A stretch of 64,000 nucleotides of DNA from assembly GCF_003790525.1 (NCBI RefSeq), contig NZ_CP033635.1; one strand, 5' to 3'. Of the stretch, positions 25,754 to 28,636 are shown in pieces. The stretch comes from Escherichia coli. Its GTDB lineage: Bacteria > Pseudomonadota > Gammaproteobacteria > Enterobacterales > Enterobacteriaceae. The notes beneath the pieces are model-generated. The model was not told the origin of the DNA. It made no database searches and saw only the letters and a program-made list of their open reading frames with translations. The first letter of the stretch is position 1. The number at the start of each line of letters is the position of its first letter. Position numbers and translations under genes: made by a program.

Positions 25754-27229
25754 ATGTCCAGTCAATATTTACGTATTTTTCAACAGCCGCGTTCAGCCAT
25801 ATTGCTGATTCTGGGTTTTGCTTCCGGGCTACCGCTCGCCCTGACATCCGGCACCTTACAGGCCTGGATGACGGTCGAGAATATCGATCTTAAAACCATT
25901 GGTTTCTTCTCTCTGGTAGGCCAGGCTTACGTTTTTAAATTCCTCTGGTCACCACTGATGGACCGCTACACGCCCCCATTTTTCGGGCGGCGGCGCGGTT
26001 GGCTGCTCGCCACGCAAATTCTGTTATTAGTCGCCATTGCGGCGATGGGTTTTCTCGAACCAGGCACCCAGCTCCGCTGGATGGCGGCACTGGCGGTGGT
26101 GATCGCTTTTTGCTCTGCCTCCCAGGATATTGTCTTCGATGCGTGGAAAACCGATGTGCTCCCGGCAGAAGAACGTGGTGCGGGCGCGGCAATCAGCGTG
26201 CTGGGTTACCGTTTAGGGATGCTGGTTTCCGGCGGCTTAGCCCTGTGGCTGGCAGATAAATGGCTGGGCTGGCAGGGCATGTACTGGTTGATGGCGGCGC
26301 TGTTGATCCCCTGTATTATCGCGACGTTGCTTGCACCAGAACCCACCGACACCATTCCTGTGCCCAAAACGCTGGAACAAGCGGTTGTTGCACCTCTGCG
26401 CGATTTCTTTGGTCGCAATAATGCCTGGCTTATTTTGCTTCTTATCGTGCTGTATAAGCTGGGCGACGCATTCGCTATGAGCCTGACAACCACGTTTTTG
26501 ATTCGCGGCGTCGGGTTTGATGCGGGTGAAGTAGGCGTGGTTAACAAAACGCTTGGCTTACTGGCGACCATTGTTGGCGCATTGTACGGTGGGATTTTGA
26601 TGCAGCGCCTGTCGCTGTTCCGTGCACTGCTGATTTTCGGCATTTTACAAGGTGCATCTAACGCCGGTTACTGGCTGCTGTCGATTACTGATAAGCATCT
26701 CTACAGCATGGGTGCAGCCGTCTTTTTCGAAAACCTCTGTGGCGGGATGGGTACATCAGCCTTTGTCGCGCTGTTAATGACGCTGTGTAATAAGTCATTT
26801 TCCGCTACTCAATTTGCCCTGCTCTCAGCGCTTTCTGCTGTAGGGCGAGTTTATGTCGGCCCCGTGGCGGGTTGGTTTGTTGAAGCACACGGCTGGTCGA
26901 CATTCTATCTGTTCTCCGTCGCCGCTGCCGTACCAGGGCTTATTTTACTGCTGATTTGTCGCCAGACGCTTGAATATACACGAGTAAATGACAACTTTAT
27001 CTCCCGTACCGAATATCCGGCAGGTTATGCCTTTGCCATGTGGACACTGGCGGCGGGCGTCAGCCTGTTGGCCGTGTGGTTACTGCTGTTGACGATGGAC
27101 GCGCTGGATTTGACGCACTTCTCTTTCCTGCCTGCTCTGCTGGAAGTCGGGGTTTTAGTCGCCCTTTCTGGCGTCGTGCTTGGTGGTTTACTGGATTATC
27201 TGGCGCTACGAAAAACGCATCTGACGTAA
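25754..27229 (+). CDS. ampG: muropeptide permease AmpG (MFS)
   Basis: 491 aa polytopic MFS protein; synteny. Confidence 0.95.
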   Translation: MSSQYLRIFQQPRSAILLILGFASGLPLALTSGTLQAWMTVENIDLKTIGFFSLVGQAYVFKFLWSPLMDRYTPPFFGRRRGWLLATQILLLVAIAAMGFLEPGTQLRWMAALAVVIAFCSASQDIVFDAWKTDVLPAEERGAGAAISVLGYRLGMLVSGGLALWLADKWLGWQGMYWLMAALLIPCIIATLLAPEPTDTIPVPKTLEQAVVAPLRDFFGRNNAWLILLLIVLYKLGDAFAMSLTTTFLIRGVGFDAGEVGVVNKTLGLLATIVGALYGGILMQRLSLFRALLIFGILQGASNAGYWLLSITDKHLYSMGAAVFFENLCGGMGTSAFVALLMTLCNKSFSATQFALLSALSAVGRVYVGPVAGWFVEAHGWSTFYLFSVAAAVPGLILLLICRQTLEYTRVNDNFISRTEYPAGYAFAMWTLAAGVSLLAVWLLLLTMDALDLTHFSFLPALLEVGVLVALSGVVLGGLLDYLALRKTHLT

Positions 27230-27685
27230 TCTGTAAATATTATTTAGCTGTAGTAATCACTCGCCGTAATTATTACGGCTAAATAAACATCAGCATCGCT
27301 TATTAATATTTGTTCTTTTGTGCGGCTTAGCGTCTGGAAATTATTGACGCTATTTATGAATTCTATTTTTCTTACACGATTCAGCAAATGAGTCTTTATT
27401 TTCTCACTACCAAGTTGTCACCTTAATGATAATTATTTGTTAAATAATTGTTTTATTTCGCATTGGTTATACCAATTGCCCGCCCAGACTCCTTCTGCAC
27501 TCCCCTTTTGTTATAACGCCCTTTTGCAACAGCTTCTTAAAATCAATCCGATATGTTTTGCAACATATGTGACCTGGAAGCCAAATCCAAGTAACAGGAA
27601 TTTAATCATGTTTACAGTAATGTAACCTTCCCGTAAAATGCCCACACACTTTAAACGCCACCAGATCCCGTGGAATTGAGGTCGT

Positions 27686-28636
<951 letters not shown>

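Follow-up and report, generated by a model that had tools for sequence, protein, structure and literature searches.

A conserved AT-rich stem-loop between ampG and cyoA, best read as a transcript-end structure of Enterobacteriaceae

Introduction

The closest described relatives of the element that we present here are the protective 3' stem-loops of Rho-dependent transcripts (Dar & Sorek 2018, NAR 46:6797). In those transcripts, a stable stem-loop stands just upstream of a precise steady-state 3' end, in a 3' UTR directly past the stop codon, with neither a U-rich tail nor an upstream A-tract. The hairpin that follows ampG in Escherichia coli shares all of these features. It differs from the described cases in that its stem is unusually long (~20 bp) and AT-rich, in that its sequence is conserved across genera far more than is usual, and in that no enrichment of C over G (rut) is seen downstream; for ampG, Rho dependence is putative, and so is trimming by exonucleases. 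Canonical intrinsic terminators also resemble it, since they too consist of a hairpin at the end of a transcription unit, with a 3' end located 6-7 nt after the stem. In the ampG hairpin, however, the 5' flank is rich in U and the 3' flank in A, which is the reverse of the usual A-tract/U-tract arrangement, the stem is AT-rich, and there is no U-tract in Escherichia, Salmonella and Citrobacter.

Two other types of elements have to be considered. REP/BIME hairpins are likewise intergenic imperfect palindromes placed after a gene, which could block 3' exonucleases, but the ampG hairpin is single-copy, AT-rich and unrelated to REP in sequence. The operators of the cyoA region (ArcA, PdhR, Cra, Fur, FNR) lie in the same conserved 459-bp spacer and are equally conserved; the hairpin differs from them in that it is 130 bp away from even the farthest of the mapped ArcA sites, matches no consensus and displays covariation in its outer stem.

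We propose, with a probability of roughly two in three, that this element is a single ~45-nt AT-rich RNA stem-loop which sets the 3' end of the ampG mRNA and protects it. It is best read as an ordinary though well-conserved transcript-end structure, and not as a mapped regulator site of cytochrome bo, and the overall biological surprise is modest. This reading gives a testable role to the conserved block that lies furthest upstream in the ampG-cyoA spacer, that of an ampG transcript end and not that of a cyo operator. It would also add a well-documented case, with unusually deep conservation and clear compensatory changes, to the 3'-end stem-loops that lack a U-tract, and the hairpin would be a convenient model in which to ask what such stem-loops need besides stability. 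As ampG governs the import of muropeptides and, in relatives of E. coli, the induction of beta-lactamase, an element involved in the stability of its mRNA would be of some practical interest. In the searchable literature, we found no description of an ampG-cyoA element, the 3' end itself being already present in a published supplementary table.

The ampG-cyoA locus

The window, that is, the whole 64-kb stretch of DNA that was analysed, corresponds to E. coli SMS-3-5 with 100% identity. A window position p translates into K-12 coordinate 479299 - p in NC_000913.3, and into 478523 - p in the older U00096.2 numbering. In NC_000913.3, ampG and cyoA are both on the minus strand, at 452070..453545 and 450663..451610, respectively. 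The spacer that separates them measures 459 bp and is AT-rich, and the palindromic region begins 12 nt past the ampG stop codon (Table 1). Two open reading frames overlap the hairpin, one on the minus strand (27244-27387) and one on the plus strand (27040-27282).

Table 1. Features of the ampG-cyoA region, in window coordinates.
Feature	Position	Strand	Remarks
ampG coding sequence (muropeptide MFS transporter)	25754-27229	+	transcript ends at hairpin
ampG stop codon	27227-27229	+	
ampG 3' UTR	27230-27292	+	64 nt in K-12 according to the TRS table (PMC10687069)
Long imperfect hairpin in the ampG 3' UTR	27241-27285	+	left arm ~27241-27260, loop TCGCC 27261-27265, right arm ~27266-27285
Perfect 17-nt palindrome GCCGTAATTATTACGGC	27263-27279	.	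right arm paired instead with bases near the loop; E. coli-specific
Equivalent of the ampG mRNA steady-state 3' terminus	27285-27297	+	K-12 452002-452014; dominant position 452007 = window 27292
ArcA site, distal	27415-27457		mapped from Park et al. 2013
PdhR box, perfect, ATTGGTTATACCAAT	27462-27476		matches the published cyoABCDE PdhR site AATTGGTataACCAATg
ArcA ChIP peak	~27523		about -123; peak without predicted site; mapped from Park et al. 2013
ArcA site, promoter-proximal	27608-27639		mapped from Park et al. 2013
cyoA	27689-28636	+	

Geometry and fold of the hairpin

The sequence-only reading from which this work started had described a nested palindrome just after ampG, in the AT-rich region upstream of cyoA. 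All of the strings that it quoted are indeed present between 27241 and 27285, and they are non-random, but they are not nested. The inner palindrome (GCCGTAAT/T/ATTACGGC) has two 8-nt arms that are 100% complementary and separated by 1 nt. The outer arms, TATTTAGC (27241-27248) and GCTAAATA (27278-27285), are not concentric with it: the right one shares 2 nt with the inner palindrome, and the left one lies 14 nt away from it. The actual symmetry, as returned by a repeat finder, is that of two 21-nt arms (27240-27260 and 27266-27286) which are 86% complementary and which enclose a 5-nt loop, TCGCC. Both outer arms belong to this one imperfect hairpin, and so does the right half of the inner palindrome. 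Its non-Watson-Crick positions are two G.U (27249.27277 and 27253.27273) and a C.A mismatch (27258/27268), meaning that two of the three mismatches seen in the DNA are G.U pairs in the ampG-sense RNA.

Folded as ampG-sense RNA, the 47-nt segment reaches a minimum free energy of -19.8 kcal/mol, against -5.2 +/- 1.9 kcal/mol for its shuffled versions (z = -7.5), none of the 200 shuffles being as good. This places it in the best 0.85% of all the 47-nt segments of both strands of the 64-kb window, and no other segment with a GC content of 35% or less matches its energy. The surrounding 61-nt region contains 31% GC, and the 20 pairs of the E. coli stem comprise 4 G-C/C-G pairs and 2 G.U wobbles. 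The 17-nt inner palindrome alone folds at only -7.6 kcal/mol; it competes for the right arm and is mutually exclusive with the long hairpin.

Conservation within E. coli

The 60-nt stretch that carries the hairpin is present in 5365 of the 5426 complete E. coli genomes, in a single place per genome, and it is at least 99% identical in 4986 of the 5426. The K-12 sequence is identical over the whole hairpin. Strain M7424 carries three substitutions, two of which preserve the pairing (U.G to C-G and U-A to U.G) while the third breaks a pair. In 1 of the ~5400 E. coli assemblies, the chromosomal ampG-cyoA region is found on a record labelled as a plasmid.

The hairpin occurs only once in the 64-kb window, and 400 kb of related loci likewise contain one per locus and no further copy. 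A repeated extragenic palindrome or a mobile family was rejected on the basis of these counts (one place in each of the 5365 E. coli genomes, one copy per window or related locus).

E. coli departs from the consensus of the family in two places: at 27252/27274, U-A is replaced by A-U in a compensatory exchange, and at 27249, C-G is replaced by U.G. It is because of this compensatory exchange that the 17-nt inner palindrome is perfect in E. coli. The other genera, which read GTAATTATAACGG at this place, do not have it, and the inner palindrome is, judging from the sequences compared, a lineage-specific by-product of a more deeply conserved hairpin.

Conservation and covariation across genera

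A scan for AmpG provided 80 species-level loci of Enterobacteriaceae, and the hairpin is found downstream of ampG in 58 of them, with carriers that include Salmonella, Citrobacter, Klebsiella/Raoultella, Enterobacter, Leclercia, Kluyvera, Trabulsiella, Yokenella, Pluralibacter and Atlantibacter. Within this set, no recognisable hairpin is found in Buttiauxella, Pseudescherichia and Cedecea, nor in the loci that do not have cyoA after ampG. In two loci of the latter kind (L062 and L073), a canonical GC-rich terminator with a T-run is found after ampG instead. The two genes are also not adjacent in Phytobacter ursingii, Enterobacter sp. Ag1, RIT693 and kpr-6. The consensus is CCGTTGTAATCAC-N5-GTAATTATAACGG, with a nearly invariant inner stem and a free loop. 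The outer stem varies from one genus to another yet stays complementary, as in the combinations UUAUUUAGC/GCUAAAUAA, CUAAUAAGCCG/CGGCUUAUUAG and GGUUAUUUCCCG/CGGCGAAAUAACC.

We quantified this by counting pairs in an ungapped alignment of 59 sequences. Standard pairs account for 79.2% of the cells, a share that drops to 29-54% once the 3' partners are shifted by 1-3 columns, and 12 of the 20 pairs show double-sided changes. The covariation score is 0.199, against at most 0.107 in the controls, and it was reached by none of 500 shuffles, with the consideration that the shuffle control ignores phylogeny and that the slid-partner control is the more meaningful one. Among the non-Watson-Crick cells, G.U on the plus strand largely outnumbers A.C (112 against 39). 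One G.U in particular, at columns 20-40 (G20.U40, corresponding to 27253.27273), is found in 52 of the 59 sequences and is never replaced by G-C or A-U. The pairs are kept by compensatory changes across species, which is what characterizes a conserved RNA motif.

RNAalifold returned an empty consensus structure on the ungapped alignment, and we relied on the explicit pair counting instead; a further alignment (A3), which mixes both strands, was left out of the analysis. A covariance model (R1) recovered only its own training sites and their reverse strands, with nothing new in the window or in the genera devoid of the hairpin. A search of Rfam at E <= 10 over 26900-27900 gave no relevant family, only a spurious snoRNA match.

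Kluyvera and its relatives deserve a separate mention (L019, L021, L023, L024, L034, L038 and L061). In these loci, the core TGTAATCAC-N5-GTAATAATAAC is kept while the outer pairing is swapped for another helix, for instance TACGCTGTA/TGCAGCGTA, with weak predicted hairpins. In these loci, the core sequence is thus retained while the structure changes.

Position between ampG and cyoA

An exact-pattern scan of metagenome contigs yielded 46 sites, and wherever the flanks extend far enough to show it, the order is ampG, hairpin, cyoA. Between the core and the cyoA ATG there are 438-456 nt, with a median of 447 nt and a sole outlier, L066, at 571 nt. The distance from the ampG stop codon to the hairpin is variable (11-286 nt), because insertions fall between the stop codon and the hairpin. 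Such insertions, which are probably repeat or mobile elements, were seen in L013 and L029 (286 nt), in L017 (145 nt) and in L046 and L080 (~40 nt, GC-rich). The species that bear them belong to some Citrobacter, Enterobacter and Raoultella, and none of the insertions splits the hairpin from the cyoA side.

The mapped 3' end of ampG

In K-12 grown in LB, a study of RNA termini by RNAtag-seq (TRS, PMC10687069) lists a 'Primary' 3' terminus of ampG on the minus strand, as a peak at 452002-452014 with 452007 as its dominant position and adjusted p values of 1e-32, 2e-35 and 1e-38 in three libraries. The fold predicted at this terminus in the same study is exactly this hairpin, with an energy of -18.2 kcal/mol and a longest U-run of 3. 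In the window, the dominant position is 6-7 nt past the last stem pair (27285/6). The read-start density reported there is 0.80-1.06 in the ampG 3' UTR, about twice that of the coding sequence (0.41-0.49), and there is no TSS within 150 nt upstream (PMC10687069). Therefore, the signal is that of the ampG transcript and not that of an independent small RNA.

This end at 452007 comes from a single dataset. The Term-seq data of Adams et al. 2021 contain no 3' end in the ampG-cyoA spacer, the ends that they report for ampG being internal to the gene (452393, and a BCM-sensitive one at 453334). The supplements of SMRT-Cappable-seq mention neither ampG nor cyoA. Comparison with 3'-end data, which the sequence-only reading had put forward to verify its proposal, gives an end at the expected place in one study and none in the spacer in the other. 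Its suggestion that the palindrome could be the ampG terminator holds in the broad sense that the primary terminus of K-12 lies just past the hairpin, but not in the sense of a canonical terminator, given the AT-rich stem, the missing U-tract and the empty scan.

A strong 3' end internal to the ampG reading frame is also found at about 26906-26909 of the window (K-12 452390-452393), ~320 nt upstream of the stop codon. It was reported independently by Adams et al. 2021, as 'ampG int', flagged as an sRNA and probed by northern blot, and by TRS (PMC10687069).

A stem-loop at the end of the ampG mRNA

These observations can be brought together in the following manner. The hairpin would be transcribed with ampG as part of its 3' UTR, and the RNA polymerase would most likely halt at the hairpin or past it, with no canonical U-tract terminator. 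The 3'-to-5' exonucleases (PNPase, RNase II) would then trim the transcript back and stall a few nt 3' of the stem. This stalled trimming would produce the observed 3' end, and ampG transcription would be kept out of the regulated cyoA promoter region. The block to exonucleases, as well as the nature of the upstream termination, Rho-dependent or not, are elements that we infer. A stable stem before a precise 3' end that is not followed by a U-rich tail is as expected of protective stem-loops. The downstream base composition is not, as no clear excess of C over G is seen there, and this weighs against the proposal: there are 8 C and 7 G in the 40 nt at 27287-27326, means of 11.1 C and 13.1 G over 80 nt downstream in 55 species, and the first C-rich stretch only comes at 27447-27526.

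The main rival explanation is that the hairpin itself terminates transcription in a non-canonical way, either independently of any factor or with the assistance of NusA/NusG, in which case the mapped end would be the true release point and not the product of trimming. The lack of a rut-like bias downstream goes in this direction, as does the distance of 6-7 nt between stem and 3' end, a spacing typical of intrinsic termination, and U-rich tails (UUAUUAACGAUUUUAU or CAUUUUUUAUUUUUU) follow the inner stem in Klebsiella/Raoultella, Yokenella and Superficieibacter. We nevertheless hold this explanation to be rather unlikely, considering that in Escherichia, Salmonella and Citrobacter the stem is followed by A-rich sequence (AAAUAAACAUCA) in which no U-run exceeds 3, that G-C pairs are few in the AT-rich stem, and that the terminator scan gave 0 sites. 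As for the canonical intrinsic terminator, it was rejected: the RNA does end a few nt after the stem (452007 = 27292), but the stem is not G+C-rich, the 3' flank (AAACAUCAGCAUCGC) has a maximal U-run of 3 and thus no U-tract, and the scan found 0 sites.

Coming back to the stem-loop that would protect the ampG 3' end, its near-invariant inner stem and its never-repaired G.U are constrained beyond what blocking exonucleases should by itself demand. This counts against the proposal, as do the empty RNAalifold consensus and the nearly constant distance to cyoA next to a variable one to the ampG stop codon. In sequence conservation, the inner stem equals the transcription-factor boxes of the spacer. 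Strong purifying selection may be enough to account for this invariance, the helix being AU-rich and marginally stable. The invariant inner stem (CCGUUGUAAUCAC...GUAAUUAUAACGG), the unrepaired G.U and the conserved C/A mismatch could also constitute a putative site of sequence-specific recognition, going beyond a passive block, a suggestion that we make tentatively and with more doubt than conviction. If it were true, a protein or an RNase would bind the RNA, or a factor would bind the extruded or duplex DNA, and such binding would link how the ampG 3' end is formed or stabilised to how the promoter region of cytochrome bo is insulated or controlled. The hairpin would then represent a cis-regulatory motif that has not been described, is not in Rfam and is restricted to Enterobacteriaceae.

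Relation to the regulator sites of cyoA

The ArcA sites of the cyoA region were placed by Park et al. 2013 at U00096.2 450884-450915 (-38..-7) and 451066-451108 (-231..-189); their third ChIP peak is at ~451000. These coordinates put the cyoA start site at position 27646 of the window, and the hairpin at -405..-361 from it, so that the hairpin precedes the ArcA sites, the PdhR site and the cyoA promoter by 130-400 bp. None of the mapped ArcA and PdhR sites, and none of the ArcA ChIP peaks, overlaps the hairpin. The other proposal of the sequence-only reading, that of a regulator site for the cyo promoter, is not borne out by this comparison, as ArcA is found at -231..-189, at about -123 and at -38..-7, away from the hairpin.

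Consensus strings are available in the literature for Fur, FNR, ArcA, CRP, PdhR, Cra, IHF and HprR, and for all of these regulators the best match in the spacer falls outside the hairpin. Inside it, the best matches are 10/19 for Fur, 6/10 for FNR, 9/15 for ArcA and 5/10 for CRP, all weaker than elsewhere in the spacer. A scan for promoters and terminators found no terminator, and its sole promoter-like site is the core promoter of cyoA (27611-27639).

A DNA operator would suppose either that a dimeric protein binds CCGTTGTAAT-N11-ATTATAACGG, at a large distance from the cyoA promoter on its upstream side, or that the palindrome serves as an architectural or cruciform site, with modulation of cyo expression in both cases. 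The position of the hairpin relative to the cyoA start, where no ArcA ChIP peak is found, and the location of the best consensus matches elsewhere in the spacer make this improbable, and so does the covariation of the outer stem, which together with the tolerated G.U favors base-pairing over base identity. Furthermore, the half-sites show a fixed asymmetry (G vs A, C vs T) that is unexpected in the site of a homodimer. What speaks for an operator is the near-invariance of the inner arms across genera, like that of the known transcription-factor boxes of the spacer, the near-constant distance to cyoA, with insertions on the ampG side only, and the fact that Kluyvera keeps the core sequence while its outer pairing differs.

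Several described DNA sites were also compared and rejected. The Tus/Ter core (GTTGTAAC) has one core mismatch, with unmatched flanks, a deviating sequence in E. coli and a wrong chromosomal location. The HprR/CusR box has half-sites in another orientation, and a likelier site exists in the cyoA promoter region. The direct repeats of CpxR/OmpR type would have a spacing of 10-11 bp, and here it is 13 bp. NagC/Mlc, ArgR, the DnaA box, IHF and a sigma-54 promoter were rejected likewise.

An antisense promoter has also been considered, in which the minus strand of the right arm, reading TATAAT in most genera and AATAAT in E. coli, would drive an RNA antisense to the ampG 3' end. This -10-like hexamer is conserved (columns 41-36 of alignment A2), and the T40 that keeps the G.U pair corresponds to the critical A at hexamer position 2. 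However, there is neither a conserved -35 nor a TG extension, the columns of the would-be -35 are variable, the promoter scan is empty here, the hexamer is weakened in E. coli, and both the conservation of the left arm and the covariation would be left unexplained, all of which makes this promoter very improbable indeed. Finally, a functionless chance palindrome, which the abundance of short palindromes in AT-rich spacers (10 inverted pairs within 600 bp according to the repeat finder) could have suggested, is effectively refuted by the comparative data. Against it stand the z of -7.5, the 58 species with compensatory changes, the identical or nearly identical sequence in 4986 of 5426 E. coli genomes and the coincidence with the mapped 3' end.

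Other conserved blocks of the spacer

The spacer contains other conserved blocks. The first of them, AATATTTGTTCTTTTGTGCGGCTTAGCGTCTGGAAATTATTG (27305-27346), is ~20 nt downstream of the hairpin; it is 80-100% conserved in ~49 species of Enterobacteriaceae and matches none of the regulator sites mapped here. Further downstream, a Cra-like match, GCTGAATCGTGTAAGA, is found on the minus strand at 27370-27385, with 12 of 16 positions fitting the consensus, within a strongly conserved block (27366-27385). The ArcA peak at ~27523 is close to conserved repeats TTTTGCAACA (27521-27531 and 27555-27565) and to a palindrome, ATATGTT..AACATAT (27551-27568). In one locus, that of E. coli EC529 (L006), a copy of ISApl1 (IS30 family; IS CDS at 2018-2992) is inserted in the ampG-cyoA spacer. 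Its right junction is at about position 27439 of the window, apparently inside the distal ArcA site, and the element is located between the hairpin, together with the upstream blocks, and the cyoA promoter.
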